Below are positions 30,644 to 64,000 of a DNA stretch of 64,000 nucleotides, piece after piece. The notes under the pieces are model-generated. The model was not told where the DNA came from. It made no database searches and saw only the letters and a list, made by a program, of their open reading frames with translations. The DNA is taken from assembly GCF_003790525.1 (NCBI RefSeq), contig NZ_CP033635.1; one strand, written 5' to 3'. The position numbers and the translations under genes were made by a program. This DNA is from Escherichia coli. Its GTDB lineage: Bacteria > Pseudomonadota > Gammaproteobacteria > Enterobacterales > Enterobacteriaceae. Position 1 is the first letter of the stretch. Every line of letters starts with the position of its first letter.

Positions 30644-30789
30644 AACTGTCAGCCGGGTCATTATCGCCTGGCTGATTTTTAGCTCACTGTAAATTATCTC
30701 ATTTATTACATACATTAGCTTACAATCGCTTTAAATATGACAGCATAACCTTTACACAATTTAGTTCCAGAAAACAATCATTCGGAAAA

Positions 30790-32265
30790 ATGATTCGGTC
30801 AACACGTATTTCCCTGGGGTTATTCTTTAATTATTTTTTATCGTCAACGAAAATTGATCCTGGTCAAAACTATATATCTCTGCCATCAATAAAATCCAGC
30901 ACTCACATTGCTCTCCTTTTTATGGCTTCTATGGGTACACAAAAATTAAAAGCTCAAGGCTTTTTTGTTTTCAGCTTATTGCTGACGTTAATTTTATTTT
31001 GCATTACTACTTTATATAACGAAAACACGAATGTAAAACTCATCCCACAGATGAATTACCTGATGGTTGTTGTGGCTTTGTTTTTCCTTAACGCCGTCAT
31101 TTTTCTTTTCATGTTAATGAAGTATTTCACTAACAAACAAATTTTACCAACACTCATTTTAAGCCTTGCATTTTTAAGTGGCCTTATCTATTTAGTTGAA
31201 ACCATTGTAATTATCCATAAACCAATCAACGGCAGTACACTGATCCAGACAAAGTCGAATGATGTTTCTATTTTCTATATTTTCCGCCAACTCAGTTTCA
31301 TTTGTTTAACCTCGCTGGCGCTCTTTTGTTATGGGAAAGACAACATCCTTGACAACAATAAGAAAAAAACTGGCATTCTGTTGCTGGCGCTGATTCCTTT
31401 TTTAGTTTTTCCCCTTCTGGCACACAATCTGAGTAGTTATAACGCTGACTATTCTTTGTATGTCGTCGATTACTGTCCGGACAACCATACTGCGACCTGG
31501 GGAATCAACTATACAAAAATATTGGTTTGTTTGTGGGCATTTTTACTGTTCTTTATTATCATGCGTACACGATTAGCCAGCGAACTATGGCCGTTAATAG
31601 CATTATTATGTCTGGCATCGCTATGCTGCAACTTACTTCTACTGACTCTGGATGAGTATAATTACACCATCTGGTATATCAGTCGCGGGATTGAAGTTTC
31701 CAGTAAACTGTTTGTTGTGTCTTTTCTGATTTATAACATTTTTCAGGAACTGCAACTCTCCAGCAAACTGGCAGTTCATGATGTGCTGACCAATATTTAT
31801 AATCGGCGCTACTTTTTCAACAGCGTAGAGTCATTATTGTCGCGACCTGTTGTTAAGGACTTTTGTGTCATGCTGGTTGATATTAATCAGTTCAAACGCA
31901 TCAATGCCCAATGGGGACATCGTGTGGGTGATAAAGTGCTGGTATCAATTGTCGATATTATCCAGCAAAGCATCCGCCCCGATGATATTTTAGCGCGACT
32001 GGAGGGTGAGGTGTTTGGCTTGCTATTTACCGAACTCAATAGTGCCCAGGCAAAAATCATTGCGGAACGTATGCGTAAAAATGTCGAACTCCTGACCGGC
32101 TTTAGTAACAGATATGATGTTCCTGAACAAATGACCATCAGTATTGGCACGGTTTTTTCAACGGGTGACACGCATAATATCTCGCTTGTCATGACGGAAG
32201 CAGATAAAGCCTTACGCGAAGCGAAAAGCGAGGGGGGCAACAAAGTGATTATTCATCATATTTAA
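30790..32265 (+). CDS. cdgI: membrane protein with degenerate GGDEF domain (c-di-GMP binding, probably non-catalytic)
   Basis: 491 aa; multi-helix N-terminal membrane domain; GGDEF position reads EGEVF (K-12 yeaI). Confidence 0.85.
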   Translation: MIRSTRISLGLFFNYFLSSTKIDPGQNYISLPSIKSSTHIALLFMASMGTQKLKAQGFFVFSLLLTLILFCITTLYNENTNVKLIPQMNYLMVVVALFFLNAVIFLFMLMKYFTNKQILPTLILSLAFLSGLIYLVETIVIIHKPINGSTLIQTKSNDVSIFYIFRQLSFICLTSLALFCYGKDNILDNNKKKTGILLLALIPFLVFPLLAHNLSSYNADYSLYVVDYCPDNHTATWGINYTKILVCLWAFLLFFIIMRTRLASELWPLIALLCLASLCCNLLLLTLDEYNYTIWYISRGIEVSSKLFVVSFLIYNIFQELQLSSKLAVHDVLTNIYNRRYFFNSVESLLSRPVVKDFCVMLVDINQFKRINAQWGHRVGDKVLVSIVDIIQQSIRPDDILARLEGEVFGLLFTELNSAQAKIIAERMRKNVELLTGFSNRYDVPEQMTISIGTVFSTGDTHNISLVMTEADKALREAKSEGGNKVIIHHI

Positions 32266-32445
32266 GTGCAAAAATATTCAGAGCCATGCTTTTTGCGTGG
32301 CTTTTGCATACAATTTATTACTATTACCCCTAAATTTCCCCTCCCCAGCGGCGCAGAGATGAGTATAATTAGCGCCCCTGTGCCAGGCCGCAATCGAACT
32401 TTATCTGGTTTTCTCGTTTCACTAACCGAAGGAGTGCCATTTATC

Positions 32446-33936
32446 ATGAAATTGCACCATAGAATGCTCCGGCATTTTATCGCCGCAAGTGTCATTGTGC
32501 TGACATCTTCCTTCCTTATTTTTGAACTTGTCGCCAGTGACAGAGCAATGAGTGCCTATCTGCGCTATATCGTGCAGAGAGCAGACTCCTCCTTTCTTTA
32601 TGATAAGTATCAGAATCAGAGTATTGCCGCGCATGTGATGCGCGCTCTCGCTGCTGAGCAGTCGGAAGTGTCGCCAGAACAGCGGCGAGCCATCTGCGAG
32701 GCTTTTGAGTCTGCCAATAATACCCATGGCTTAAACCTGACTGCCCATAAATACCCTGGCTTACGCGGCACACTACAAACCGCATCCACTGACTGCGACA
32801 CAATTGTGGAAGCTGCTGCACTATTACCCGCTTTTGATCAGGCAGTGGAAGGCAACCGCCACCAGGATGATTACGGTTCAGGTCTTGGGATGGCCGAAGA
32901 GAAATTTCACTATTATCTCGATCTCAATGACCGCTATGTCTATTTTTATGAGCCGGTTAATGTTGAGTACTTTGCGATGAATAACTGGTCCTTCCTGCAG
33001 TCAGGAAGTATTGGCATCGATCGCAAAGATATTGAAAAGGTATTTACCGGGCGTACCGTATTATCGAGCATTTACCAGGATCAGCGTACTAAACAGAACG
33101 TGATGAGTTTGCTGACGCCGGTATATGTCGCAGGGCAGCTAAAAGGGATTGTGCTGCTGGATATTAACAAAAACAATCTGCGGAATATCTTTTACACTCA
33201 TGACCGCCCTCTCCTCTGGCGTTTTCTCAATGTCACGCTAACTGATACCGATTCGGGGCGCGACATTATCATCAACCAGAGCGAAGATAATCTGTTCCAG
33301 TATGTCAGTTACGTCCATGACTTACCGGGCGGCATTCGTGTCTCGTTATCCATTGATATTCTTTACTTTATCACGTCTTCGTGGAAAAGCGTTCTGTTCT
33401 GGATTTTGACGGCGTTAATTTTGCTGAATATGGTGCGGATGCACTTCCGTTTATACCAAAATGTGTCGCGAGAAAATATTAGTGATGCGATGACTGGACT
33501 CTATAATCGCAAAATTTTAACCCCTGAACTGGAGCAGCGGTTGCAGAAACTGGTGCAATCCGGTTCTTCGGTGATGTTTATTGCAATTGACATGGACAAG
33601 TTAAAGCAAATAAATGACACCCTTGGTCATCAGGAGGGGGATTTAGCGATTACGTTATTAGCTCAGGCGATTAAACAATCGATTCGTAAAAGTGATTATG
33701 CCATCCGACTCGGTGGCGATGAATTCTGCATCATTCTTGTCGATTCGACACCGCAAATTGCAGCACAACTGCCTGAACGTATCGAAAAACGTCTGCAACA
33801 TATCGCGCCGCAGAAAGAGATCGGCTTCTCTTCCGGTATTTACGCGATGAAAGAAAACGATACGTTACATGATGCGTATAAAGCTTCCGATGAGCGTTTA
33901 TATGTCAATAAGCAGAACAAAAACAGCCGTTCATGA
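32446..33936 (+). CDS. dgcJ: diguanylate cyclase with periplasmic sensor domain
   Basis: 496 aa from MKLHHRMLRHF with GGAG Shine-Dalgarno; canonical RLGGDEF (K-12 yeaJ); ORF-track 60-codon extension rejected. Confidence 0.88.
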   Translation: MKLHHRMLRHFIAASVIVLTSSFLIFELVASDRAMSAYLRYIVQRADSSFLYDKYQNQSIAAHVMRALAAEQSEVSPEQRRAICEAFESANNTHGLNLTAHKYPGLRGTLQTASTDCDTIVEAAALLPAFDQAVEGNRHQDDYGSGLGMAEEKFHYYLDLNDRYVYFYEPVNVEYFAMNNWSFLQSGSIGIDRKDIEKVFTGRTVLSSIYQDQRTKQNVMSLLTPVYVAGQLKGIVLLDINKNNLRNIFYTHDRPLLWRFLNVTLTDTDSGRDIIINQSEDNLFQYVSYVHDLPGGIRVSLSIDILYFITSSWKSVLFWILTALILLNMVRMHFRLYQNVSRENISDAMTGLYNRKILTPELEQRLQKLVQSGSSVMFIAIDMDKLKQINDTLGHQEGDLAITLLAQAIKQSIRKSDYAIRLGGDEFCIILVDSTPQIAAQLPERIEKRLQHIAPQKEIGFSSGIYAMKENDTLHDAYKASDERLYVNKQNKNSRS

Positions 33937-34756: not shown

Positions 34757-35203
34757 ATGTTTGATGTCACTTTGCTGATCCTGCTCGGGTTAGCTGCGCT
34801 GGGCTTTATCAGTCATAACACCACTGTCGCCGTTTCAATTCTGGTGTTGATCATTGTCCGCGTCACACCGTTAAGCACCTTTTTCCCGTGGATTGAAAAA
34901 CAGGGGCTAAGTATCGGGATAATCATTCTGACGATTGGCGTTATGGCTCCCATCGCCAGCGGGACGCTACCGCCCTCAACCCTGATTCACTCATTTCTGA
35001 ACTGGAAATCGCTGGTGGCAATTGCAGTCGGCGTTATTGTCTCCTGGCTGGGGGGGCGCGGCGTGACGTTAATGGGCAGCCAGCCGCAACTGGTCGCCGG
35101 GCTGCTGGTGGGCACTGTTTTAGGCGTGGCGCTGTTTCGCGGCGTACCGGTTGGCCCGCTTATTGCCGCGGGTCTGGTTTCGCTGATTGTGGGGAAACAG
35201 TAG
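34757..35203 (+). CDS. yeaL: UPF0756 inner membrane protein
   Basis: 148 aa, four predicted helices. Confidence 0.85.
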
Positions 35204-35981
35204 TTAATCCCGCAATATATCGGCCTGGCGTTTGCCCCAGGCCTTTCTTAAACATAGTAATAAAGGCCGTTGTTGAATCATACCCCAGCGTATGAGCAAC
35301 TTTCTGTACAGTATCGCCTTTCACTAATCCCTGAAGCGCCATAATCAGCTGTAACTGCTGACGCCACTGGCGAAAACTCAACCCCGTCTCTTTCACTATC
35401 AGCCGGGCAAGATTGCGTTCACTCATCGCAAAAAAGCCAGCCCATTGCCCCAATGAGCCCCACTCGACGGGCTCTTTCGCCATCATCTCCACCATCGTGC
35501 GGATTTTAGGATGAGAAGAAACGGGCAGGTGCAGCTGTTGTTGTGGCTGCTGAGGGAGTTCATCAAACAGGACCTGAATTAATCTGCGGGTCATCGGCTC
35601 AGCACGCTGAGTCGTCGTCCTGTTTGCCAGGGTTAAAATTAATTCCCGGCATAAGGGCGATATTTTCAATGTGCAACATGTTGTCGGCATTGTCACTGCG
35701 CTGGGCTCGATAAACAGAAAACAGAGTTCAGCGTTAGCTGTCACTTGATTGCTATGTTTCACCCCGCCCGGTATCCAAACCGCATATTGTGGCGGCACCA
35801 TCCACAAAGCATTTTCCACCGTACAGGTAATTGCACCATGTAGCGCCAGTATCAACTGCCCTTTGCGGTGCTGATGTACAGGACTGGTTAACTCATCCGT
35901 TCCGGCGTGAATACAAAATGCGACCGCGGCCTCATGGTGTCGGTCGGGTTCATAGCCATTGAGATTCAACCTGTGCATCAT
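35160..35981 (-). CDS. yeaM: AraC-family transcriptional regulator
   Basis: 273 aa; cupin-like N-terminus and C-terminal AraC HTH; 3' end overlaps yeaL by 44 bp. Confidence 0.85.
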
Positions 35982-38119: not shown

Positions 38120-39145
38120 GTGTCAGATCAGATTATCGCCCGCGTCTCGCAATCCCTTGCCAAAGAACAGTCACTGGAAAGCCTGGTCCGACAGCTTCTG
38201 GAGATGCTGGAAATGGTCACTGATATGGAATCAACCTACCTGACCAAAGTGGATGTCGAAGCGCGCCTGCAGCATATAATGTTTGCCCGTAACAGCCAGA
38301 AAATGCACATCCCGGAGAATTTTACCGTCTCGTGGGATTATTCGTTATGCAAACGCGCCATTGATGAAAACTGCTTTTTCAGCGATGAAGTCCCCGACCG
38401 TTGGGGCGACTGTATTGCGGCACGCAATCTTGGCATCACCACATTTCTGAGCACGCCAATTCACTTACCGGATGGATCATTCTATGGCACGCTTTGCGCC
38501 GCCAGCAGTGAGAAGCGCCAGTGGAGTGAACGCGCGGAACAGGTTTTGCAGTTATTCGCCGGACTGATTGCACAATATATTCAAAAAGAGGCGCTGGTAG
38601 AACAGCTGCGCGAAGCCAATGCCGCACTGATAGCGCAATCGTATACCGACTCGTTAACCGGGCTACCGAATCGGCGGGCGATTTTTGAAAATCTGACGAC
38701 GCTGTTTTCTCTCGCCCGGCATCTTAACCATAAGATAATGATCGCGTTTATCGACCTGGATAACTTCAAATTAATCAACGATCGTTTTGGTCATAATAGT
38801 GGCGATCTGTTTCTCATTCAGGTTGGCGAGCGCCTTAATACGCTCCAGCAAAATGGCGAAGTTATTGGTCGTCTCGGCGGTGATGAGTTTTTGGTTGTTT
38901 CACTGAACAACGAGAATACGGATATTTCGTCGCTGCGAGAACGTATTCAACAGCAAATACGTGGAGAATATCACTTAGGTGATGTTGATTTGTATTATCC
39001 CGGTGCCAGTCTTGGCATAGTAGAAGTCGATCCTGAAACGACCGATGCAGACAGTGCCCTGCATGCTGCCGATATCGCGATGTATCAGGAGAAAAAACAC
39101 AAACAGAAAACACCTTTTGTCGCGCATCCAGCGCTACATTCCTGA
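38120..39145 (+). CDS. dgcP: GAF-domain diguanylate cyclase
   Basis: 341 aa from GTG (VSDQIIARV) with GGAG 7 nt upstream; canonical RLGGDEF (K-12 yeaP); the ORF-track extension has no support. Confidence 0.85.
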   Translation: MSDQIIARVSQSLAKEQSLESLVRQLLEMLEMVTDMESTYLTKVDVEARLQHIMFARNSQKMHIPENFTVSWDYSLCKRAIDENCFFSDEVPDRWGDCIAARNLGITTFLSTPIHLPDGSFYGTLCAASSEKRQWSERAEQVLQLFAGLIAQYIQKEALVEQLREANAALIAQSYTDSLTGLPNRRAIFENLTTLFSLARHLNHKIMIAFIDLDNFKLINDRFGHNSGDLFLIQVGERLNTLQQNGEVIGRLGGDEFLVVSLNNENTDISSLRERIQQQIRGEYHLGDVDLYYPGASLGIVEVDPETTDADSALHAADIAMYQEKKHKQKTPFVAHPALHS

Positions 39146-43652: not shown

Positions 43653-45263
43653 ATGATGAGCAATGTTAAGAAAAAAGATGTGCCGCTGATAAGCATCAGT
43701 CTGGTGGCCATTCTTTTCATCGCAGCTGCATTAAGCCTTTTCCCACAACAATCGGCCGACGCGGCCAACGCTATATACACTTTTGTTACGCGTACGTTAG
43801 GTTCCGCCGTACAGGTATTGGTTTTGCTGGCAATGGGACTGGTGATTTATTTAGCCACCAGTAAATACGGCAATATTCGTCTTGGCGAAGGAAAACCGGA
43901 ATACAGCACGCTCTCCTGGCTGTTTATGTTTATTTGTGCCGGTTTAGGTTCTTCTACGCTTTATTGGGGGGTTGCTGAATGGGCCTATTATTATCAAACA
44001 CCTGGATTAAATATCGCACCGCGTTCACAACAGGCACTCGAATTTAGCGTCCCTTACTCCTTCTTCCACTGGGGCATCAGCGCCTGGGCAACTTATACGC
44101 TGGCCTCATTAATCATGGCTTATCACTTTCATGTGCGGAAAAACAAAGGTCTGAGTCTTTCCGGCATTATTGCCGCGATTACCGGCGTTCGCCCGCAAGG
44201 CCCGTGGGGAAAACTGGTCGATTTGATGTTCCTGATCGCCACTGTCGGCGCACTGACCATTTCCCTTGTTGTCACCGCAGCAACCTTTACCCGTGGGCTT
44301 TCCGCGCTGACCGGTTTACCCGATAATTTCACCGTGCAGGCATTTGTGATCCTGCTTTCCGGCGGCATTTTTTGCCTAAGCTCATGGATTGGTATCAACA
44401 ACGGTTTGCAACGTCTGAGCAAAATGGTTGGCTGGGGCGCGTTCCTGCTGCCATTACTGGTGCTCATTGTCGGCCCAACCGAATTTATTACCAACAGCAT
44501 CATCAATGCCATCGGCCTGACCACGCAAAACTTCCTGCAAATGAGCTTATTCACCGATCCGCTTGGCGATGGTTCATTTACCCGCAACTGGACCGTTTTC
44601 TACTGGCTGTGGTGGATCTCATACACCCCTGGCGTAGCAATGTTTGTCACCCGCGTTTCCCGCGGTCGTAAGATTAAAGAAGTTATCTGGGGACTGATCC
44701 TCGGCAGCACCGTCGGTTGCTGGTTCTTCTTCGGCGTAATGGAAAGCTATGCCATTCACCAGTTTATCAATGGCGTAATCAACGTCCCACAGGTGCTGGA
44801 AACACTGGGCGGCGAGACAGCTGTGCAGCAAGTTCTGATGTCGTTGCCAGCCGGTAAATTGTTCCTCGCCGCATACCTGGGCGTGATGATTATTTTCCTT
44901 GCCTCGCATATGGATGCAGTGGCCTACACCATGGCGGCGACCAGTACGCGTAATCTCCAGGAAGGTGACGATCCTGACCGTGGGCTGCGTCTTTTCTGGT
45001 GCGTGGTAATTACCCTGATCCCGCTTTCAATTCTTTTCACTGGCGCGTCGCTGGAAACGATGAAAACCACCGTCGTACTCACAGCCCTTCCGTTCCTCGT
45101 CATTTTACTGGTGAAAGTCGGCGGATTTATTCGCTGGCTGAAACAGGATTACGCCGACATTCCGGCTCATCAAGTTGAATATTATCTCCCGCAGACACCG
45201 GTTGAAGCCCTGGAAAAAACACCAGTGCTCCCTGCGGGAACCGTATTCAAAGGCGACAACTGA
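43653..45263 (+). CDS. yeaV: BCCT-family transporter (betaine/carnitine/choline type)
   Basis: ATG at 43653 preceded by AGGAG at 7-nt spacing; polytopic membrane protein; I recall the reference protein as shorter, so the start is uncertain. Confidence 0.8.
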
Positions 45264-48638: not shown

Positions 48639-48664
48639 AAAAAAAACGCCGGATTAACCGGCGT
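48639..48664 (-). terminator. fadD terminator hairpin plus U8, also the element upstream of the rnd UUG start
   Basis: Stem ACGCCGG / CCGGCGT with 5-nt loop followed on the minus strand by eight U, 24 nt before the rnd UUG. Confidence 0.8.
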
Positions 48665-48683
48665 CTGACGACTGACTTAACGC

Positions 48684-50369
48684 TCAGGCTTTATTGTCCA
48701 CTTTGCCGCGCGCTTCGTCACGTAATTCTCGTCGCAAAATTTTTCCGACGTTAGATTTCGGTAACTCATCACGAAACTCCACCAGCTTCGGTACTTTGTA
48801 GCCCGTGAGCTGACGGCGGCAAAAAGTCACCAGTGACTCTTCGGTAAGCGATGGATCTTTTTTCACAACGAAGATTTTCACCGCTTCACCACTAGAGCCG
48901 GAAGGTACGCCAACAGCCGCGACTTCCTGTACGCCAGGATGCTGCATGACGACATCTTCAATCTCGTTGGGATAGACGTTAAAACCGGAAACCAGAATCA
49001 TGTCTTTTTTACGATCGACAATGCGCAGGAATCCTTCTTCATCCATCACCGCGATGTCGCCGGTGTGTAACCAGCCATTTTTGATGATTTCATCGGTAGC
49101 ATCCGGACGCTGCCAGTAACCCAGCATCACCTGCGGTCCTTTGACACAAAGCTCACCTGGTTGACCAGGTGGTACTTCATTATCATCATCATCCACCAGT
49201 TTGGCTTCCGTCGACGGCACCGGCAAACCGATGCTACCACTATGATAATCAATATCATACGGGTTAACGCTCACCAGCGGCGCACACTCGGTCAGGCCAT
49301 AACCTTCCAGCAGATACTGTCCAGTCAGTTTCACCCAACGTTCTGCCACCACTTGCTGAACAGGCATCCCTCCGCCTGCGGAAAGATGCAGACTGGAGAA
49401 ATCCAGCTGCTGGAACTCTTTATTGTTCAGCAACGCATTGAACAAGGTGTTAACGCCAGTGATAGCGGTAAACGGATATTTCGCTAACTCTTTTACCAAC
49501 CCTGGAATATCGCGCGGGTTAGTGATAAGCAGGTTCTGCCCCCCCAGTTCGATAAACAGCAGGCAGTTAATGGTCAGTGCAAAAATGTGATACAGCGGCA
49601 GCGCCGTCACCACCAGCTCTTTGCCCGGATGCAACAGCGGACCATAGGTCGCGTTAACCTGTTCCAGGTTCGCCAGCATATTGCGGTGAGTCAGCATCGC
49701 GCCTTTCGCCACACCAGTGGTACCGCCGGTGTATTGCAGGAAAGCTAAATCTTCCGGCACCAGTTCGGGTTTGACGTACTGCATCCGGTAGCCGTTGTGC
49801 AGGGCGCTACGAAATGAAATGGCATCTGGCAGATGGTATTTCGGCACCAGACGCTTGATGTATTTAACAACGAAATTGACTACCGTGCCTTTTGCCGTAG
49901 ATAGCTGATCGCCCATACGGGTCAGAATTACGTGCTGAACGGCGGTTTTATCAACCACTTTTTCCAGAGTGTGGGCAAAGTTAGACACGATAACAATCGC
50001 CGATGCGCCGCTATCGTTAAGCTGATGCTCAAGTTCACGCGGGGTATACAACGGGTTAACGTTTACGACAATCATCCCGGCACGCAAAATGCCAAACAGC
50101 GCCACCGGATATTGCAATAAATTAGGCATCATCAACGCAACGCGATCGCCTTTCTTCAGTCCCAACCCTTGTTGCAAATAAGCGGCAAACGCGCGACTGC
50201 GTTCTTCCAGTTTGCGGAAGGTCATCACCTCCCCCATATTCACAAACGCGGGTTGATCGGCGTAGCGCGCGACCGACTGCTCAAACATATCTACCAGAGA
50301 TTGATAACGGTCAGGGTTGATCTCCGTCGGAACGTCCGCGGGATAACGGTTAAGCCAAACCTTCTTCAA
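48684..50369 (-). CDS. fadD: long-chain-fatty-acid--CoA ligase
   Basis: 561 aa from TTG ([10 protein letters not shown] read as MKKVW) with GAGGTG Shine-Dalgarno; AMP-binding signature [18 protein letters not shown]. Confidence 0.9.
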
Positions 50370-51946: not shown

Positions 51947-53857
51947 TTACCTGGAGGATGGTATCGCAAGGAAGCGAACCGCACGGGCAATGTCACGGGT
52001 GCGCGGCGCGGGCGGCAGACTGGCGAGAAACGTCGCGCCGTAAGGGCGCATCACCAGCCGATTGTCACAAATCACCAAAACCCCGCGATCGTCGGCGTCG
52101 CGAATCAGTCGCCCTACTCCCTGCTTGAGAGTAATCACCGCATCCGGTAGTTGTACTTCATCGAACGGGTCACCACCACGCAAACGGCAATCTTCCATGC
52201 GCGCTTTTAATAGTGGATCATCCGGTGAGGTAAACGGCAACTTGTCGATAATCACCAATGACAATGTATCGCCACGCACATCCACCCCTTCCCAGAAGCT
52301 GCTGGTTGCCACAAGAAGCGCGTTACCGGCGCTGACAAATTGCTGCAACAGTTGCCCTTTGCTGGTTTCCCCCTGCAACAAAACGGGAAGCGTCATGGTA
52401 GCGCGGAACTGCTCAGCCAGATCGCGCATCATGGCGTGCGAGGTACAAAGCATAAAACAACGACCGTTGTTAGCTTCGATGATCGGTCGCAACATTGCCG
52501 CCAGTTGCCGTGCGGAGCCCGGTTGATTGGTTTGCGGCAGGTTGCGCGGCACACAGAGTAACGCCTGGCGGCTGTAATCAAACGGGCTGGGTAACAGCAA
52601 CGACTCCGCCTGTTCGATGCCAAGCCGCGAGGTGAAATGATGCAGATCGTCGTTCACCGACAGCGTTGCTGAGGTAAAGATCCAGCTACCGGGTTTTTGC
52701 GCCATTAACTCTTTGAATTTATCCGCCACGCTGAGCGGCGTGAGTGCCAGAGTAAAATGGCGCGAAGTGCATTCGTACCAGTAGCTGTAGCCCGGCTGAT
52801 TGATCTCTTTTAGCCGTTTCAGCCGCGTGCGATACAACGTGGCGCGCTCAAATGCCGCATCCAGCAAAGCGGAACGCCCCAGCGACAGTTTCGCCACGTC
52901 ATAACAAAGTTCCAGGGTGTCATCGAGCAGTAAAAACGCCCGTTGAATTTGCGGATTAGCTAACAGTTCGCGCAGGTTGCCACGATAACCAGGCTCACCG
53001 AGTTGCAGACGAAAATCCTGCGCGCTCTGGGCAAGGCGGTCGGCGCACTTTTGTAACTGCTGGGTGTCTTTTAATTCGGTGCGGTAGGCGATGGTGATGT
53101 CTTTTGCCAGGTCGAGCAGTTGTCGACTGGAGAGTGACTGACCAAAATACTGGCTGGCAATGTCGGGCAGTTGGTGGGCTTCGTCGAAGATCATGACGTC
53201 AGCTTCCGGGATCAGTTCGCCAAATCCACTCTCTTTCACCACCATATCCGCCAGAAAGAGATGATGGTTTACCACCACCACATCGGCGTCCATCGCTTTT
53301 TTGCGTGCTTTGACCACAAAGCAATCTTTATACATCGGGCAGTCGCTGCCAAGGCAGTTATCGTTGGTGCTGGTGACCAGCGGCCACGCCTGTGAATCTT
53401 CCGCCACGCTGACGCAGGTGCTGATATCACCATCGACTGTTTGATTAGACCAGGAGCGCAGCAGGATCACATCGCTTAAGATTTGTACCGGCAGATCGCC
53501 CCCCGCCAGCGCCTGCTGTTCGAGACGTTCGAGGCAGAGGTAGTTTGAGCGCCCTTTCAGCAACGCCAGGTTGCCCGTGTATTTCAATGCCTTTGAGACC
53601 GTTGGCAAATCGCGGCTGTAGAGCTGATCCTGCAACGCTTTTGAACCGGTCGAGATAATGACTTTCTTTTTCGCCCGCAGCGCAGGGGCCAGGTAAGCGT
53701 AGGTTTTGCCCGTACCGGTTCCGGCTTCCACCACCAGCGGCTGGCCTTTTTCTATCGCCTGGGTGACGGCTACCGCCATCTGTCGCTGTGGTTCTCGCGG
53801 CTTAAAGCCTGGTATCGCTTTCGCCAGCTGACCGTCTGGTGCAAAATCGTCCGTCAC
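51947..53857 (-). CDS. yoaA: DinG-family ATP-dependent DNA helicase
   Basis: 636 aa; Walker A AGTGTGKT and DEAH box (FDEAHQL); GTG start with G-rich Shine-Dalgarno. Confidence 0.9.
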   Translation of the reverse strand: MTDDFAPDGQLAKAIPGFKPREPQRQMAVAVTQAIEKGQPLVVEAGTGTGKTYAYLAPALRAKKKVIISTGSKALQDQLYSRDLPTVSKALKYTGNLALLKGRSNYLCLERLEQQALAGGDLPVQILSDVILLRSWSNQTVDGDISTCVSVAEDSQAWPLVTSTNDNCLGSDCPMYKDCFVVKARKKAMDADVVVVNHHLFLADMVVKESGFGELIPEADVMIFDEAHQLPDIASQYFGQSLSSRQLLDLAKDITIAYRTELKDTQQLQKCADRLAQSAQDFRLQLGEPGYRGNLRELLANPQIQRAFLLLDDTLELCYDVAKLSLGRSALLDAAFERATLYRTRLKRLKEINQPGYSYWYECTSRHFTLALTPLSVADKFKELMAQKPGSWIFTSATLSVNDDLHHFTSRLGIEQAESLLLPSPFDYSRQALLCVPRNLPQTNQPGSARQLAAMLRPIIEANNGRCFMLCTSHAMMRDLAEQFRATMTLPVLLQGETSKGQLLQQFVSAGNALLVATSSFWEGVDVRGDTLSLVIIDKLPFTSPDDPLLKARMEDCRLRGGDPFDEVQLPDAVITLKQGVGRLIRDADDRGVLVICDNRLVMRPYGATFLASLPPAPRTRDIARAVRFLAIPSSR

Positions 53858-53988
53858 ACTACCCCCTGTTGATTTGAACAGGGATTATGTCAGGATGAGG
53901 GCGCTTTCGCCAGTTGAAGTGGTGACGGCGACCTCACATTGTGGCAGTCTTTGCAGCACGAAAATGGAAGGATAATGAGGACAAAATG

Positions 53989-54333
53989 ATGACTATCGTT
54001 CGTATCGATGCTGAAGCCCGCTGGTCTGATGTGGTGATCCACAACAACACGCTATACTACACTGGTGTACCGGAAAACCTCGACGCCGATGCTTTTGAGC
54101 AAACCGCCAACACGCTGGCGCAGATTGACGCCGTGCTGGAAAAACAGGGCAGCAATAAATCGAGCATTCTGGATGCCACCATTTTCCTGGCTGATAAAAA
54201 CGACTTCGCGGCGATGAATAAAGCGTGGGATGCCTGGGTTGTCGCTGGTCATGCGCCGGTGCGCTGCACGGTACAAGCGGGTTTGATGAACCCGAAGTAT
54301 AAAGTTGAAATTAAGATTGTGGCTGCAGTGTAA
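53989..54333 (+). CDS. yoaB: RidA/YjgF-family protein
   Basis: 114 aa from MTIVRIDAEARW. Confidence 0.82.
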   Translation: MTIVRIDAEARWSDVVIHNNTLYYTGVPENLDADAFEQTANTLAQIDAVLEKQGSNKSSILDATIFLADKNDFAAMNKAWDAWVVAGHAPVRCTVQAGLMNPKYKVEIKIVAAV

Positions 54334-54754
54334 GCTTTATCGAAGCATAATAAGTCAGACGATAATTTATCGATAATACTGGTCGGTTTTGCATAAATCG
54401 ACCAGAGATTAAGTTATTACTGTTGATGCTCCTGCTAATTCATTATTTATTTTTATAATTTCAATTTCATCTATAAAACTGGCTATATAAATAAACATAA
54501 CCATGCCGTTGTGTTCGCCCTCTGATTAGCAACTCTGGTTTTCTTTCTTAGCTGAACAATCTGGTTATAGCGTGAGAACTGACCGTTAATTTTCTCCCTC
54601 TTACTGGATAACACACCATGAGCTGCTACCTTTAAAACACCTGAATGTCAACAGGTTAACTCGTGCCATATCGTTATAATCCCTTTGATATTAGATGCAA
54701 ATTAAGGTCATATATAGCCTTATCGATAACATGGTTAATTTTAAGGATAAGAAT

Positions 54755-55054
54755 ATGCCTGCTGTAATAGATAAAGCCCTGGATTTCATTGGTGCCATGG
54801 ATGTATCAGCACCAACACCAAGTTCGATGAATGAAAGCACGGCGAAGGGAATCTTTAAATATTTGAAAGAACTGGGAGTACCCGCGAGTGCCGCTGATAT
54901 TACGGCGCGAGCTGACCAGGAAGGCTGGAACCCGGGGTTCACGGAAAAAATGGTTGGATGGGCAAAAAAAATGGAGTCTGGTGAACGCATTGTGATTAAA
55001 AATCCTGAATACTTTTCAACATATATGCAGGAAGAACTAAAAGCACTGGTCTAA
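54755..55054 (+). CDS. yoaC: DUF1889 family protein
   Basis: 99 aa from MPAVIDKALDFIG. Confidence 0.8.
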   Translation: MPAVIDKALDFIGAMDVSAPTPSSMNESTAKGIFKYLKELGVPASAADITARADQEGWNPGFTEKMVGWAKKMESGERIVIKNPEYFSTYMQEELKALV

Positions 55055-55083
55055 GTTAAATTTACATCAGCATAAATGGGTCA

Positions 55084-55119
55084 GGACGCTTTTAATCACA
55101 TATGAAAAGCGTCCTTTTT
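55084..55119. terminator. bidirectional terminator between convergent yoaC and yoaH
   Basis: 10-bp stem AGGACGCTTT / AAAGCGTCCT with 12-nt loop, followed by a T run. Confidence 0.7.
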
Positions 55120-55173
55120 CTCACAATCAAATAATCATCGGCTTCTATAACGAAAGCGATACGGGTTAGTGTG

Positions 55174-55353
55174 TTACTCGTCTTCATCCTCAAAACGCGC
55201 CACGATTCGCTCGCCGGAATGGTTGGCACGCAGCTCTTCTGCCATCAACGCGATTGCCTGGCCGCTGCTCATCCCTTGAGCCATCAGTTCCTGGATCCGC
55301 TCGACAGCTTTTTGCTGCTGTTCATGGGTGAGTGAAGGTAAACCTGCAAACAT
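55174..55353 (-). CDS. yoaH: UPF0181 small protein (59 aa)
   Basis: Hand translation [59 protein letters not shown]; below ORF-track cutoff. Confidence 0.7.
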
Positions 55354-55426
55354 TGTTAACTCCTGCTAAATTGTTGGCGCTAATTATTTCATGCTACCCG
55401 GCACATAGCCAGTAGAGTCAGGACTG

Positions 55427-56788
55427 ATGAAGACGTTATCTCCCGCTGTGATTACTTTACCCTGGCGTCAGGACGCCGCTGAATTTTATTTCTCACGCTT
55501 AAGCCACCTGCCGTGGGCGATGCTTTTACACTCCGGCTATGCCGATCATCCGTATAGCCGCTTTGATATTGTGGTCGCCGAGCCAATTTGCACTTTAACT
55601 ACTTTCGGTAAAGAAACCGTTATTAGTGAAAGCGATAAACGTACAACGACCACTGATGACCCGCTACAGGTGCTCCAGCAGGTGCTGGATCGCGCAGACA
55701 TTCACCCAACGCATAACGAAGATTTGCCATTTCAGGGCGGCGCGCTGGGGTTGTTTGGCTACGATCTGGGCCGCCGTTTTGAGTCACTGCCAGAAATTGC
55801 GCAGCAAGATATCGTTCTGCCGGATATGGCAGTGGGTATCTACGACTGGGCGCTGGTTGTTGACCACCAGCGTCAAACAGTTTCTTTGCTGAGTCATAAT
55901 GATGTCAATGCTCGTCGGGCCTGGCTGGAAAGCCAGCAATTCTCGCCGCAGGAAGATTTCACGCTCACTTCCGACTGGCAATCCAATATGACCCGCGAAC
56001 TGTACGGCGAAAAATTTCGCCAGGTACAGGAATATCTGCACAGCGGTGATTGCTATCAGGTGAATCTCGCCCAGCGTTTTCATGCGACCTATTCTGGCGA
56101 TGAATGGCAGGCATTCCTTCAGCTTAATCAGGCCAACCGCGCGCCGTTTAGCGCTTTTTTACGCCTTGAACAAGGCACGATTTTAAGCCTTTCGCCAGAG
56201 CGGTTTATCCTTTGTGATAACAGTGAAATCCAGACCCGCCCGATTAAAGGCACGCTACCACGCCTGCCCGATCCTCAGGAAGATAGCAAACAAGCAGAGA
56301 AACTGGCGAACTCAGCGAAAGATCGTGCCGAAAATCTGATGATTGTCGATTTAATGCGTAATGATATCGGTCGTGTTGCCGTAGCAGGTTCGGTAAAAGT
56401 ACCAGAGCTGTTCGTGGTGGAACCCTTCCCTGCCGTGCATCATCTGGTCAGCACCATAACGGCGCAACTACCAGAACAGTTACACGCCAGCGATCTGCTG
56501 CGCGCGGCTTTTCCTGGTGGCTCAATAACTGGGGCTCCGAAAGTACGGGCTATGGAAATTATCGACGAACTGGAACCGCAGCGACGCAATGCCTGGTGCG
56601 GCAGCATTGGCTATTTGAGCTTTTGCGGCAACATGGACACCAGCATTACTATCCGCACGCTGACTGCCATTAACGGACAAATTTACTGCTCTGCGGGGGG
56701 TGGAATTGTCGCCGATAGCCAGGAAGAAGCGGAATATCAGGAAACTTTTGATAAAGTTAATAAGATATTACGCCAACTGGAGAAGTAA
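55427..56788 (+). CDS. pabB: aminodeoxychorismate synthase component I
   Basis: 453 aa; chorismate-binding enzyme family. Confidence 0.92.
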   Translation: MKTLSPAVITLPWRQDAAEFYFSRLSHLPWAMLLHSGYADHPYSRFDIVVAEPICTLTTFGKETVISESDKRTTTTDDPLQVLQQVLDRADIHPTHNEDLPFQGGALGLFGYDLGRRFESLPEIAQQDIVLPDMAVGIYDWALVVDHQRQTVSLLSHNDVNARRAWLESQQFSPQEDFTLTSDWQSNMTRELYGEKFRQVQEYLHSGDCYQVNLAQRFHATYSGDEWQAFLQLNQANRAPFSAFLRLEQGTILSLSPERFILCDNSEIQTRPIKGTLPRLPDPQEDSKQAEKLANSAKDRAENLMIVDLMRNDIGRVAVAGSVKVPELFVVEPFPAVHHLVSTITAQLPEQLHASDLLRAAFPGGSITGAPKVRAMEIIDELEPQRRNAWCGSIGYLSFCGNMDTSITIRTLTAINGQIYCSAGGGIVADSQEEAEYQETFDKVNKILRQLEK

Positions 56789-56791
56789 GAC

Positions 56792-57370
56792 GTGGAATAC
56801 CGTAGCCTGACGCTTGATGATTTTTTATCGCGCTTTCAACTTTTGCGCCCGCAAATTAACCGGGAAACCCTAAATCATCGTCAGGCTGCCGTGTTAATCC
56901 CCATCGTCCGTCGACCGCAACCGGGGTTGTTGCTGACTCAGCGTTCGATTCATCTGCGCAAACACGCTGGACAAGTGGCATTCCCTGGAGGCGCAGTCGA
57001 TGACACGGACGCATCCGTTATCGCCGCTGCGCTGCGCGAAGCTGAAGAAGAGGTCGCTATACCGCCTTCCACCGTTGAAGTTATCGGCGTGCTGCCGCCC
57101 GTCGATAGCGTCACTGGCTACCAGGTAACCCCAGTGGTCGGCATTATCCCGCCCGATCTGCCGTATCGCGCCAGTGAAGATGAAGTCTCGGCGGTGTTTG
57201 AAATGCCGCTCGCCCAGGCATTACATCTGGGTCGTTATCATCCTTTAGATATCTACCGCCGTGGCGATTCACATCGGGTATGGCTGTCCTGGTACGAACA
57301 GTATTTTGTATGGGGAATGACCGCAGGCATAATTCGTGAACTGGCGCTGCAAATTGGTGTGAAACCCTGA
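56792..57370 (+). CDS. nudL: Nudix CoA pyrophosphatase
   Basis: 192 aa; Nudix box [25 protein letters not shown]; start 4 nt after pabB stop. Confidence 0.88.
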
Positions 57371-57553
57371 CTATACTTATCTTTACATCTACAAAACACT
57401 ACTTGAGACAATCATCGCAATATTAGTTAAATCGCGGTTTTTGATTAGTTTAATTCATGTGAATAGTTAAGCCAGTCGCCGCGTTCCCTCTTACACTATG
57501 CGCTGTTATTAGTTCGTTACTGGAAGTCCAGTCACCTTGTCAGGAGTATTATC

Positions 57554-58918
57554 GTGATTAGTCTATTCGACATGTTTAAGGTGGGGATTGGTCCCTCATC
57601 TTCCCATACCGTAGGGCCTATGAAGGCGGGTAAACAGTTCGTCGATGACCTGGTCGAAAAAGGCTTACTGGATAGCGTTACTCGCGTTGCCGTGGACGTT
57701 TATGGTTCACTGTCGCTGACGGGTAAAGGCCACCACACCGATATCGCCATTATTATGGGTCTTGCAGGTAACGAACCTGCCACCGTGGATATCGACAGTA
57801 TTCCCGGTTTTATTCGCGACGTAGAAGAGCGCGAACGTCTGCTGCTGGCACAGGGACGGCATGAAGTGGATTTCCCGCGCGACAACGGGATGCGTTTTCA
57901 TAACGGTAACCTGCCGCTGCATGAAAACGGTATGCAAATCCACGCCTATAACGGCGATGAAGTCGTCTACAGCAAAACTTATTATTCCATCGGCGGCGGT
58001 TTTATCGTCGATGAAGAACACTTTGGTCAGGATGCCGCCAACGAAGTGAGCGTGCCGTATCCGTTCAAATCTGCCACCGAACTGCTCGCGTACTGCAATG
58101 AAACCGGCTATTCGCTGTCTGGTCTCGCTATGCAGAATGAACTGGCGCTGCACAGCAAGAAAGAGATCGACGAGTATTTCGCGCATGTCTGGCAAACCAT
58201 GCAGGCATGTATCGATCGCGGGATGAACACCGAAGGCGTACTGCCAGGCCCGCTGCGCGTGCCGCGTCGTGCGTCTGCCCTGCGCCGGATGCTGGTTTCC
58301 AGCGATAAACTGTCTAACGATCCGATGAATGTCATTGACTGGGTAAACATGTTTGCGCTGGCAGTTAACGAAGAGAACGCCGCCGGTGGTCGCGTGGTAA
58401 CTGCGCCAACCAACGGTGCTTGTGGCATTGTTCCGGCAGTGCTGGCTTACTATGACCACTTTATTGAGTCCGTCAGCCCGGACATCTATACCCGCTACTT
58501 TATGGCAGCGGGTGCGATTGGTGCACTGTATAAAATGAACGCCTCTATTTCCGGTGCGGAAGTCGGTTGCCAGGGCGAAGTGGGTGTTGCCTGTTCAATG
58601 GCTGCTGCGGGCCTTGCCGAGCTGTTGGGCGGTAGCCCGGAACAGGTTTGTGTGGCGGCGGAAATTGGCATGGAGCACAACCTCGGTCTGACCTGCGACC
58701 CGGTTGCAGGGCAGGTTCAGGTGCCGTGCATTGAGCGTAATGCTATTGCCTCTGTGAAGGCGATTAACGCCGCACGGATGGCTCTGCGCCGCACCAGCGC
58801 ACCGCGCGTCTCGCTGGATAAGGTCATCGAAACGATGTACGAAACCGGTAAGGACATGAACGCCAAATACCGCGAAACCTCACGCGGTGGTCTGGCAATC
58901 AAAGTCCAGTGTGACTAA
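57554..58918 (+). CDS. sdaA: L-serine dehydratase 1 (Fe-S dependent)
   Basis: 454 aa starting [23 protein letters not shown]. Confidence 0.93.
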
Positions 58919-58929
58919 TACTTCTTACT

Positions 58930-58952
58930 CGCCCATCTGCAACGGATGGGCG
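58930..58952 (+). terminator. hairpin downstream of sdaA (weak terminator candidate)
   Basis: 8-bp stem CGCCCATC / GATGGGCG with 7-nt loop; no clear U run. Confidence 0.4.
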
Positions 58953-59048
58953 AATTTATCCCCGCTTTCTCGTCTGCTGTAATATTCCCCACTACACTTC
59001 CACTGTTGCGTCAGGCGTTTGTCGCCATACGCTTACAGGGTGGCCCGC

Positions 59049-60647
59049 ATGCAAAAAGCACAACGGATCATTAAAACCTATCGCCGTAATCGAATGATTG
59101 TTTGTACGATTTGCGCCCTCGTTACGCTCGCTTCGACCCTGAGCGTGCGATTTATTTCACAGCGTAACTTAAATCAACAACGGGTAGTACAATTCGCCAA
59201 TCACGCTGTAGAGGAATTAGATAAAGTACTGCTTCCCCTACAGGCAGGTAGCGAAGTCTTGCTTCCGCTGATTGGTCTGCCCTGCTCTGTCGCCCATTTG
59301 CCATTACGTAAACAGGCGGCAAAACTCCAAACTGTGCGATCCATTGGCCTGGTGCAAGACGGCACACTTTATTGCTCCAGCATTTTTGGTTATCGCAATG
59401 TGCCCGTCGTGGACATTCTGGCTGAACTTCCTGCACCGCAACCACTTTTACGCCTGACGATCGACCGTGCCCTGATTAAAGGCAGTCCGGTTTTGATTCA
59501 GTGGACGCCAGCAGCGGGCAGTAGCAAAGCTGGGGTCATGGAGATGATTAACATCGACTTACTGGCGGCAATGCTGCTTGAGCCACAACTGCCGCAAATC
59601 AGTAGCGCCAGCCTGACGGTGGACGATCGGCATTTGCTCTATGGTAATGGGCTGGTAGATTCCCTTCCGCAACCTGAAAACAATGAAAACTACCAGGTTT
59701 CTTCGCAACGCTTTCCTTTTACCATTAACGTTAATGGTCCGGGGGCTACGGCGCTGGCATGGCACTATCTTCCAACACAATTACCGCTGGCGGTGCTGCT
59801 AAGTTTACTGGTGGGCTACATCGCCTGGCTGGCGACCGCTTACCGGATGAGCTTTTCCCGCGAAATCAATCTGGGCCTGGCGCAACATGAGTTCGAATTG
59901 TTCTGTCAGCCTTTGCTTAATGCGCGCAGCCAGCAATGTATTGGTGTAGAGATTTTGCTTCGCTGGAACAATCCGCGTCAGGGCTGGATTTCACCGGATG
60001 TGTTTATTCCTATCGCGGAAGAACATCATTTAATTGTGCCACTGACCCGCTATGTGATGGCAGAAACCATTCGTCAGCGCCATGTTTTCCCGATGAGTAG
60101 TCAGTTTCATGTTGGCATTAACGTCGCACCCAGCCATTTTCGCCGTGGTGTGCTGATAAAAGATCTCAATCAGTACTGGTTTAGCGCTCACCCGATTCAG
60201 CAACTGATCCTCGAAATCACCGAACGCGATGCCTTACTGGATGTTGATTATCGGATTGCCCGCGAGCTACATCGTAAAAACGTCAAACTGGCGATTGATG
60301 ACTTCGGCACCGGCAACAGTTCATTTTCCTGGCTTGAAACATTACGTCCTGACGTGCTGAAAATTGATAAGTCATTTACCGCAGCTATAGGTTCTGACGC
60401 GGTTAACTCGACGGTGACCGATATCATCATCGCTCTGGGGCAAAGACTGAATATTGAACTGGTGGCGGAGGGTGTGGAAACACAAGAACAGGCGAAGTAT
60501 TTGCGCCGTCATGGGGTGCATATTTTGCAAGGGTATTTGTACGCACAGCCGATGCCGCTACGTGATTTTCCCAAATGGCTGGCGGGCAGCCAACCGCCGC
60601 CCGCCCGGCATAATGGACATATCACGCCCGTTATGCCGTTACGTTAA
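59049..60647 (+). CDS. pdeD: c-di-GMP phosphodiesterase (membrane sensor domain plus EAL domain)
   Basis: 532 aa from MQKAQRIIKTYRRN; EAL-domain motifs (EIL variant, DDFGTG) (K-12 yoaD). Confidence 0.88.
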   Translation: MQKAQRIIKTYRRNRMIVCTICALVTLASTLSVRFISQRNLNQQRVVQFANHAVEELDKVLLPLQAGSEVLLPLIGLPCSVAHLPLRKQAAKLQTVRSIGLVQDGTLYCSSIFGYRNVPVVDILAELPAPQPLLRLTIDRALIKGSPVLIQWTPAAGSSKAGVMEMINIDLLAAMLLEPQLPQISSASLTVDDRHLLYGNGLVDSLPQPENNENYQVSSQRFPFTINVNGPGATALAWHYLPTQLPLAVLLSLLVGYIAWLATAYRMSFSREINLGLAQHEFELFCQPLLNARSQQCIGVEILLRWNNPRQGWISPDVFIPIAEEHHLIVPLTRYVMAETIRQRHVFPMSSQFHVGINVAPSHFRRGVLIKDLNQYWFSAHPIQQLILEITERDALLDVDYRIARELHRKNVKLAIDDFGTGNSSFSWLETLRPDVLKIDKSFTAAIGSDAVNSTVTDIIIALGQRLNIELVAEGVETQEQAKYLRRHGVHILQGYLYAQPMPLRDFPKWLAGSQPPPARHNGHITPVMPLR

Positions 60648-60650
60648 CAC

Positions 60651-62207: not shown

Positions 62208-62399
62208 GACAAGCTCCTGCTTAAGGAATAGCTATTCGACGCCAGAAATAATGCAGGCGTAACGACAAAATGCAAACGAAAGGTGCGGCATAAAGTGCCA
62301 GAAAGGCAGGCGTTAAAAGGCCTGATGCTGAAATGACGTCGGTGACGATCCATACTGCGGGCTACTGCCCTATACTCCATGGTTGTTAAACAGGAGTTA

Positions 62400-62669
62400 A
62401 ACATATCAGAGACACATCTGATTTGGCAAAGATTTACCTTCCTTTGCAAACGAATGTGACAAGGATATTTTACCTTTCGAAATTTCTGCTAATCGAAAGT
62501 TAAATTACGGATCTTCATCACATAAAATAATTTTTTCGATATCTAAAATAAATCGCGAAACGCAGGGGTTTTTGGTTGTAGCCCTTATCTGAATCGATTC
62601 GATTGTGGACGACGATTCAAAAATACATCTGGCACGTTGAGGTGTTAACGATAATAAAGGAGGTAGCAA
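62400..62669 (+). promoter_or_regulatory. manXYZ promoter/operator region (candidate CRP and Mlc-type sites)
   Basis: TGTGA half-site at 62455; inverted repeats ATCAGA-N6-TCTGAT (62405-62422) and CTTTCGA-N12-TCGAAAG (62474-62499); AAGGAGG Shine-Dalgarno before the GTG start. Confidence 0.5.
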
Positions 62670-63641: not shown

Positions 63642-63703
63642 CGTATTGTGTTGATTATCACTCAGTTTTCACACTTAAGTCTTACGTAAACAGGAGAAGT
63701 ACA

Positions 63704-64000
63704 ATGGAGATTACCACTCTTCAAATTGTGCTGGTATTTATCGTAGCCTGTATCGCAGGTATGGGATCAATCCTCGATGAATTTCAGTTTCACCGTCCGC
63801 TAATCGCGTGTACCCTGGTGGGTATCGTTCTTGGGGATATGAAAACCGGTATTATTATCGGTGGTACGCTGGAAATGATCGCGCTGGGCTGGATGAACAT
63901 CGGTGCTGCAGTTGCGCCTGACGCCGCTCTGGCTTCCATCATTTCTACTATTCTGGTTATCGCAGGTCATCAGAGCATTGGTGCAGGTATCGCACTGGCA
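63704..64000 (+). CDS. manY: PTS mannose-specific EIIC component, 5' portion (continues past window end)
   Basis: ATG at 63704 with GGAG upstream; hydrophobic MEITTLQIVLVFIVACIAG. Confidence 0.88.
   Translation, partial: MEITTLQIVLVFIVACIAGMGSILDEFQFHRPLIACTLVGIVLGDMKTGIIIGGTLEMIALGWMNIGAAVAPDAALASIISTILVIAGHQSIGAGIALA

Follow-up and report, generated by a model that had tools for sequence, protein, structure and literature searches.

The four cyclic-di-GMP genes identified in the window, the whole 64,000-nucleotide stretch of Escherichia coli DNA that was analysed, are very probably best explained as a whole as four named core-genome E. coli genes, cdgI, dgcJ, dgcP and pdeD, which have been characterised to differing degrees. 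Across positions 10,500–64,000, the part covered by the comparison, the window is identical base for base (100%) to E. coli SMS-3-5, and the coordinates of all four genes agree with the RefSeq annotation of that strain, which places them as follows:

30,790–32,265, plus strand: cdgI (yeaI, b1785; RefSeq), with MASE4 at residues 88–319 and a degenerate GGDEF domain at residues 328–485
32,446–33,936, plus strand: dgcJ (yeaJ, b1786; RefSeq), with a transmembrane helix, GAPES1 (31–304), a second transmembrane helix and a canonical GGDEF domain (346–494)
38,120–39,145, plus strand: dgcP (yeaP, b1794; RefSeq), with a GTG start and encoding a soluble GAF-GGDEF protein
59,049–60,647, plus strand: pdeD (yoaD, b1815; RefSeq), with a transmembrane helix, CSS (43–240), a second transmembrane helix and EAL (273–501)

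Compared with K-12, the four genes lie in the same order, share 98–99% nucleotide identity, contain no frameshifts and carry 1–8 amino-acid changes per protein, so that orthology, taken as K-12 gene order together with at least 98% nucleotide identity, holds for cdgI, dgcJ, dgcP and pdeD alike. K-12 DgcJ (496 residues) differs by a single substitution (K45R), with an identical GAPES1-GGDEF architecture and an identical 180-nt upstream intergenic region, while DgcP and PdeD show two and five amino-acid differences, respectively, none of them in catalytic motifs. K-12 CdgI is likewise encoded between yeaH and dgcJ, has the same 491-codon annotated ORF and carries the same EGEVF, INA and RPDD motifs; the window holds the SMS-3-5 allele, in which 8 of 491 residues differ (seven of the eight within the first 60), a difference that is allelic only. 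The region was found in 5424 of 5426 complete E. coli genomes, and 5410 of these 5424 have the cdgI locus at full length. The RefSeq annotation and the K-12 layout thus bear out the gene coordinates of the original prediction and its statement that all four genes are known in K-12. The genes are already known and ordinary, and they had been described correctly; since they are named, annotated and partly characterised, the discovery value is small.

The domain search proposed as a check on the original prediction was run with Pfam, and it found the expected folds and confirmed the motif positions, with GGDEF in three proteins and EAL in the fourth. Against a PF00990 cut-off of 23.8 bits, CdgI scored 152.8 bits (profile positions 1–161), DgcJ 137.9 and DgcP 140.6, with E-values of 9e-45, 3e-40 and 5e-41 for the three proteins; CdgI moreover matched 52 solved GGDEF structures. 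The architectures were MASE4+GGDEF for CdgI, GAPES1+GGDEF for DgcJ, GAF+GGDEF for DgcP and CSS+EAL for PdeD. With about 7–8 hydrophobic helices and its MASE4 domain, CdgI is a polytopic inner-membrane protein. In DgcJ, GAPES1 (E 7e-151) is placed in the periplasm because it is flanked by two hydrophobic helices (at about residues 11–29 and 316–334), in keeping with the periplasmic sensor that had been proposed for this protein along with a canonical RLGGDEF. The latter was located at residues 421–427 (GGDEF at 33,712–33,726) together with an RKSD I-site and INDTLGH, so that DgcJ has both the GG(D/E)EF motif and the metal-binding Asp expected of a cyclase. DgcP likewise carries both cyclase motifs (RLGGDEF and INDRFGH); on motif inspection its RxxD I-site is absent, with QQNG at its place. 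The EAL domain of PdeD reached 197.6 bits (cut-off 31.3; E 3e-58). Its EAL motif reads EIL, and both EILLR and DDFGTG were located; the full catalytic signature of yoaD, EILR/QRDD/TE/ENEEDKEQ, is tabulated in PMC3484386. Domain match and catalytic residues place it with the active-type EAL phosphodiesterases, an activity predicted from motifs. A PF12792 match (146.3 bits, residues 43–240) with CSS at 109–111 lies between hydrophobic helices at about 17–35 and 245–263, and this periplasmic CSS domain between transmembrane helices, upstream of EAL, is the arrangement of the CSS-domain phosphodiesterases (PdeB/C/D/G/N). The nearby genes had been read as a GAF-GGDEF cyclase and an EAL phosphodiesterase, as Pfam also found. 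DgcP would accordingly be a soluble GAF-regulated cyclase and PdeD a membrane-bound CSS-domain phosphodiesterase, each an independent member of the same c-di-GMP network.

The function of DgcJ is known in part. Infection by phage N4 requires DgcJ and its GGDEF motif, and DgcJ co-purifies with NfrB and activates it locally, NfrB making the N4 receptor (PMC8669469). DgcJ, its activity presumably set by the periplasmic GAPES1 domain, gives the glycosyltransferase NfrB local c-di-GMP for the surface glycan that N4 uses as receptor, and it also contributes to the motility-inhibiting c-di-GMP pool.

The degenerate character of the upstream gene is seen at three sites in CdgI:

31,900–31,911, plus strand: INAQ (residues 371–374), with Ala373 in place of the metal-binding Asp of xNDxxGH
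31,975–31,986, plus strand: RPDD I-site (RxxD; residues 396–399), intact and five residues upstream of the active-site motif
32,002–32,016, plus strand: EGEVF (residues 405–409) replacing GG(D/E)EF; phmmer aligns it to GGEEF in 3ign, a cyclase of known structure, and it also aligns to GGEEF in DgcT and in the Citrobacter orthologues

CdgI thus has neither of the two cyclase motifs, reading EGEVF rather than GG(D/E)EF and INAQWGH without the metal-binding Asp. The EGEVF noticed in the original prediction was therefore confirmed, with INA for IND and an intact RxxD as additions to it. R396 and D399 were invariant in 20 homologues, and R427, which lies about 22 residues after the motif start and which we take to be the equivalent of PleD R390, was kept in at least 90% of them; CdgI thereby has both parts of an I-site, an RxxD five residues before the motif and a downstream Arg. 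Caulobacter PopA and Pseudomonas PelD are proteins with a dead GGDEF active site that have retained RxxD and bind c-di-GMP via the I-site. CdgI resembles them in its inactivated GGDEF and its kept RxxD, whereas the N-terminal domains and the outputs differ. With the first Gly and the fourth motif residue changed and the metal-binding Asp replaced by Ala, the CdgI GGDEF domain would no longer make c-di-GMP; since the RxxD inhibitory site is kept, the protein would bind c-di-GMP instead, serving either to sense c-di-GMP or to heterodimerise with other GGDEF domains. Purified CdgI does bind c-di-GMP (Sarenko 2017, PMC5635695), which agrees with the receptor role that had been suggested for it, and the binding assay proposed for this protein has thus already been done. 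The same study found strong two-hybrid contacts of the CdgI GGDEF domain with several other GGDEF domains, toxicity upon over-expression, repression by CsrA and laboratory expression below detection (PMC5635695). Binding of SrsR and RstA upstream of cdgI has also been reported.

It is very unlikely that CdgI retains diguanylate cyclase activity in spite of EGEVF, which would make the pair two cyclases in a row, though part of the literature treats YeaI in this manner (Sanchez-Torres 2011, as cited in PMC3484386 and PMC6824119). It is listed among proteins with 'verified diguanylate cyclase activity' in PMC3484386, whose table gives its signature as KNAHDREGEVF, and is cited in PMC6824119 as raising c-di-GMP in BW25113; a direct assay of its enzyme activity is not cited in any of the literature found. 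E407, the third motif residue, is indeed kept, as are many residues of the GTP site (K, N, H, D, R), but three catalytic or metal positions have been lost (G405E, E408V, D373A). Complementation points both ways, since WspR, a cyclase, complemented some ΔyeaI phenotypes in CFT073, the biofilm defects seen in no-salt LB, but failed to complement ΔyeaI in glycerol medium (PMC3484386). The Hengge laboratory classes CdgI as degenerate and has renamed it accordingly (PMC5635695). The motif also drifts freely in close CdgI orthologues, while the canonical relatives all retain GGEEF.

The two neighbouring genes had been called tandem, which holds in that they are adjacent and on the same strand, but they are not duplicates. 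CdgI and DgcT are full-length paralogues (37% identity over 449 residues, E 1e-99), whereas the match between CdgI and DgcJ is confined to 130 residues of GGDEF (29% identity). An origin by tandem duplication was rejected, as the CdgI and DgcJ GGDEF domains are 24–29% identical and no closer to each other than either is to DgcP. DgcT (YcdT), an active MASE4-GGDEF cyclase encoded next to the pga operon, shares the MASE4+GGDEF architecture and the RPDD I-site of CdgI; it differs in genomic location and in retaining GGEEF and IND where CdgI has EGEVF and INA. Syntenic cdgI orthologues between yeaH and yeaK, beside a GAPES1-GGDEF gene, were found in E. albertii, at two Citrobacter loci and in one further enterobacterium. 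The Escherichia-side orthologues read EGEVF, EGDVF, EGEEF, DGEVF, EGNVF or EGKRF at the motif. Inactivation is placed on the Escherichia side, because the syntenic Citrobacter orthologues have kept GGEEF as well as IND. CdgI descends from an active DgcT-like cyclase, with catalysis lost on the Escherichia side and purifying selection thereafter.

Such selection was assessed from dN/dS between E. coli and E. albertii, which was 0.069 for the CdgI GGDEF domain and about 0.07 over both CdgI domains (dS about 1), compared with 0.018 for the DgcJ GGDEF domain and 0.012 for yeaH. Judged by these ratios, the dead CdgI domain is under purifying selection. This bears on whether cdgI could be a decaying pseudogene without function, its position beside dgcJ being a leftover. 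A truncated 345-residue allele exists (639 member sequences, against 10,877 in the full-length cluster), as does an IS3-disrupted allele, so cdgI can be lost, and none of the five GGDEF-only proteins of Salmonella Typhimurium resembles CdgI. Single isolates additionally encode MASE4-GAPES1-GGDEF proteins of 532 and 560 residues, which were rejected as read-through products and are in-frame deletions. Together with the drifting active-site motif and the undetected laboratory expression, these alleles would fit decay. Besides the low dN/dS, however, K-12 and SMS-3-5 both have an unbroken ORF, nearly all genomes carry the locus at full length, and the I-site residues do not vary; c-di-GMP binding and toxicity on over-expression have been shown for the protein (PMC5635695), and regulators bind upstream. 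Decay is highly improbable, and a retained, catalytically inactive c-di-GMP-binding protein is the preferred reading. Translation of cdgI probably begins 47 codons downstream of the annotated start, at the conserved ATG at 30,931, a correction that is relevant to the design of fusion or expression constructs.

Two features lie in the cdgI–dgcJ junction:

32,281–32,304, plus strand: hairpin directly after the cdgI stop (−19.1 kcal/mol, z −3.75), which a short U-tract overlaps and follows
32,363–32,369, plus strand: GTATAAT, a candidate −10 box for dgcJ, 77 nt upstream of its ATG

The hairpin stem survives the sequence changes seen in E. albertii and at the two Citrobacter loci, and the hairpin resembles a terminator or a 3′-end stabiliser. 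In a simple scan for promoters and terminators, hits were no more numerous than in shuffled sequence, and this hairpin escaped it, probably since the scan extends the stem into the T-tract; an Rfam scan of the whole window returned only sroD and nothing at the cdgI–dgcJ locus. GTATAAT, a motif that is by itself not rare within the window, is invariant across five species in an otherwise variable intergenic region, as is the AAGGAG (SD) before dgcJ, while no good −35 hexamer for it was seen in the intergenic region. As far as sequence conservation goes, this suggests that dgcJ has its own promoter. DgcJ protein is detectable whereas CdgI is not (PMC5635695). Because of the conserved hairpin, the conserved −10 box and this differing expression, the two genes are most likely transcribed separately and not as an operon. 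dgcJ shares the frame of the cdgI stop (TAA), and no stop codon interrupts the 180-nt spacer. Read-through or an ancestral fusion was rejected and the shared frame put down to chance, the spacer being 179 nt in E. albertii, 185 nt at one Citrobacter locus and 166 nt in a further relative, so that the frame differs.

The four c-di-GMP genes span 29,858 bp, in line with the predicted four in 30 kb. In a simulation that scattered 29 genes randomly over 4.64 Mb, at least four fell in some 30-kb stretch in about 2% of trials (P about 0.02), and two genes started within 2 kb of each other in about 30%. The four-gene density is mildly unusual, although this is a post hoc observation, and the adjacency of cdgI and dgcJ alone is not unusual. 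The original prediction had spoken of notable density rather than novelty, a judgement we consider correct, all four genes being K-12 residents in the same layout. A further possibility is that cdgI and dgcJ form one co-transcribed unit, in which CdgI feeds back on DgcJ via GGDEF–GGDEF contact, and that the four-gene cluster is a module. The density, the adjacency kept from Citrobacter to Escherichia, the lack of a strong intrinsic terminator between the genes in the simple scan and the strong two-hybrid contacts of the CdgI GGDEF domain (PMC5635695) are in its favour. It is nevertheless unlikely in view of the conserved hairpin and the invariant TATAAT and SD, and of the presence of DgcJ protein when CdgI is absent (PMC5635695). 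Moreover, the published DgcJ-NfrB module works without CdgI (PMC8669469), Salmonella has kept DgcJ (STM1283) while CdgI is absent, and the genes between the four are functionally unrelated. Nor is DgcJ named as a CdgI partner in the literature text found.

The preferred reading therefore remains that of separately transcribed, known genes. To this the analysis makes modest additions: within a conserved gene pair, it assigns the loss of CdgI catalysis to the Escherichia side and shows purifying selection to be still acting on the dead domain, and it adds the candidate dgcJ promoter and the probable later start of cdgI. A more specific and quite improbable idea is that CdgI, inactivated only on the Escherichia side, is a membrane c-di-GMP sensor which, under particular conditions, through I-site binding and pairing with the DgcJ GGDEF domain, tunes DgcJ-NfrB and thereby N4 susceptibility; if this were true, the conserved position of cdgI beside dgcJ would reflect a working partnership.

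Direct comparison of the window with NC_010498.1 (SMS-3-5) gave 0 mismatches over 10500-54200 and 53715-64000, and by megablast the segment 30500-34200 was matched in 5,424 of 5,426 complete E. coli genomes, with SMS-3-5 among those matching at 100%. The RefSeq annotation of SMS-3-5, together with Pfam domains (residue numbers in brackets), gives the following c-di-GMP genes:

30790-32265, cdgI (yeaI): MASE4 (88-319) and GGDEF (328-485)
32446-33936, dgcJ (yeaJ): GAPES1 (31-304, E 7e-151) and GGDEF (346-494)
38120-39145, GTG start, dgcP (yeaP): GAF and GGDEF
59049-60647, pdeD (yoaD): CSS motif (43-240) and EAL (273-501)

In the ORF list of the window, cdgI is a 491-codon ORF (30790-32265), the mechanical ORF ending at 33936 is longer and encloses the 496-codon gene starting at 32446, and further ORFs end at 39145 and 60647. 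K-12 MG1655 carries all four genes (b1785, b1786, b1794 and b1815), as originally predicted, in identical order and with identical lengths; nucleotide divergence is 1.0-2.1% without frameshifts, and the amino-acid differences number 8 in CdgI, 1 in DgcJ, 2 in DgcP and 5 in PdeD. The Pfam search found GGDEF in three proteins and EAL in the fourth, and together with RefSeq it bore out the predicted GAF-GGDEF cyclase and EAL phosphodiesterase as DgcP and PdeD. A hydropathy scan placed two transmembrane helices around the GAPES1 domain of DgcJ, in agreement with the predicted periplasmic sensor, and likewise around the CSS domain of PdeD, with approximately 7-8 helices in CdgI and 0 in DgcP. DgcJ carries RKSD and the canonical RLGGDEF; DgcP has RLGGDEF and lacks RxxD; PdeD contains EILLR, DDFGTG and the CSS tripeptide, and its full catalytic signature has been listed as intact (PMC3484386).

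The predicted degeneracy of CdgI held up on alignment, with EGEVF (residues 405-409) at the position of GGEEF in the solved cyclase 3ign and in DgcT. Moreover, the canonical xNDxxGH is replaced by INAQWGH, so a metal-binding Asp is lost too, while RPDD, five residues upstream of EGEVF, occupies the RxxD inhibitory-site position. CdgI is already known in the literature as a GGDEF protein that is degenerate yet has kept its I-site (Sarenko et al. 2017, PMC5635695), although YeaI is still termed an active cyclase in some papers (PMC3484386, PMC6824119). The suggestion that it might be a c-di-GMP receptor is backed by published binding to the purified protein; the GGDEF domain of CdgI also makes contact with a number of other GGDEF domains, CdgI cannot be detected in standard conditions and is repressed by CsrA, and its over-expression is toxic (PMC5635695).

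The tandem arrangement could reflect duplication of the neighbouring dgcJ. CdgI and DgcJ align over just 130 residues, within the GGDEF domain, at 29% identity, compared to 37% over 449 residues for CdgI and DgcT (E 1e-99), and this closer, longer match rules duplication out. A protein search recovered CdgI orthologues down to 57% identity, and the order yeaH, MASE4-GGDEF gene, GAPES1-GGDEF gene, yeaK recurs in orthologue contigs of E. albertii, two Citrobacter loci and one other enterobacterium. The cdgI-dgcJ type gene pair predates the inactivation of CdgI, since the Citrobacter orthologues retain both GGEEF and IND, while the first Gly is gone in all closer relatives (EGEVF, EGDVF, EGEEF, DGEVF, EGNVF, EGKRF). 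R396 and D399 are unchanged throughout the aligned homologues; the catalytic positions thus drifted after inactivation and the I-site did not.

Comparing E. coli with E. albertii by the Nei-Gojobori method gave a dN/dS of 0.074 for whole CdgI and 0.069 for its GGDEF domain, 0.031 and 0.018 for DgcJ, and 0.012 for yeaH. The dead GGDEF domain of CdgI is more relaxed than the live one of DgcJ, yet clearly maintained. Natural alleles include a truncated 345-residue form (639 member sequences) and one disrupted by an IS3 insertion. None of the five GGDEF-only proteins of Salmonella Typhimurium is CdgI-like; STM1283 is its DgcJ orthologue, an equivalence that the shared D425 numbering supports. In two E. 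coli isolate proteins (P0026 and P0035), rare natural in-frame deletions join a 5' portion of cdgI with dgcJ, yielding MASE4-GAPES1-GGDEF chimeras of 532 and 560 residues. Also on record are a cdgI-dgcJ' deletion of laboratory origin and, for some MG1655 stocks, a dgcJ that carries an IS1 insertion (PMC8117528).

The cdgI start codon is probably placed too far 5' in the annotation, by the first 47 codons (30790-30930). The DgcT alignment starts at M48, the orthologues of E. albertii, Citrobacter and one other relative are 445-448 residues long, and upstream of the conserved ATG (30931) their frame is broken by stop codons and by indels of lengths not divisible by three. Codons 1-47 hold 5 of the 8 K-12 vs SMS-3-5 substitutions. 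Two DNA blocks in this supposed extension are conserved across genera, and may be cdgI operator and promoter elements:

~30853-30866, palindrome-like TTGATCCTGGTCAA (TTGATCCTAATCAA at one Citrobacter locus, less symmetric at the other)
~30885-30898, CATCAATA(A/G)AATCC

The RstA box is TACATNTNGTTACA, and TACATTAGCTTACA at 30707-30720, upstream of cdgI, resembles it. This likeness fits the RstA binding to the yeaI promoter reported in the literature, where SrsR is likewise reported to bind upstream of cdgI.

Alignment of the cdgI-dgcJ spacer from five species revealed three conserved features:

32281-32304, hairpin directly 3' of the cdgI stop codon
32363-32369, GTATAAT, invariant
before the dgcJ ATG, AAGGAG, invariant

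Across four species the hairpin is predicted at -13 to -23 kcal/mol (z -2.7 to -4.5), its pairing is kept through base changes, and in E. coli it overlaps a short U-tract. Taken with the published difference in CdgI and DgcJ protein levels (PMC5635695), these sequence features make a promoter of its own probable for dgcJ. In the cdgI frame no stop codon interrupts the spacer, at first sight an oddity; read-through into dgcJ is ruled out, since the frame relationship varies among relatives. SMS-3-5 and K-12 share the spacer (32266-32445) at 100% identity while their flanking genes differ by 1-1.8%, though with approximately 2.5 differences expected this identity alone is not significant.

The predicted clustering was also recovered, with the four genes spanning 29.9 kb. 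When 29 genes were placed randomly on 4.64 Mb, at least four fell within 30 kb in approximately 2% of trials, making the density nominally unusual, though it was spotted after the fact. The intervening genes are functionally unrelated, and the four differ in regulation (PMC5635695). Across the whole window, the sole Rfam match is the small RNA sroD (48640-48725, minus strand; RF00370, 115 bits). The convergent yeaL (34757-35203, plus) and nimR (35160-35981, minus) overlap by 44 nt at their 3' ends, as annotated in K-12, and yeaV (~43653-45263) is 1611 nt in SMS-3-5 vs 1446 nt in K-12, a difference in start-codon annotation.

For DgcJ, phage N4 infection specifically needs this one of 12 cyclases, in a role that depends on its GGDEF motif; the c-di-GMP-activated glycosyltransferase NfrB and DgcJ co-purify (Junkermeier and Hengge 2021, PMC8669469). 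Taken together, the original observation is confirmed and its interpretation supported, and everything central on these four genes is already known. Among the additions of the analysis to the published picture are the origin of CdgI and the selection acting on it.
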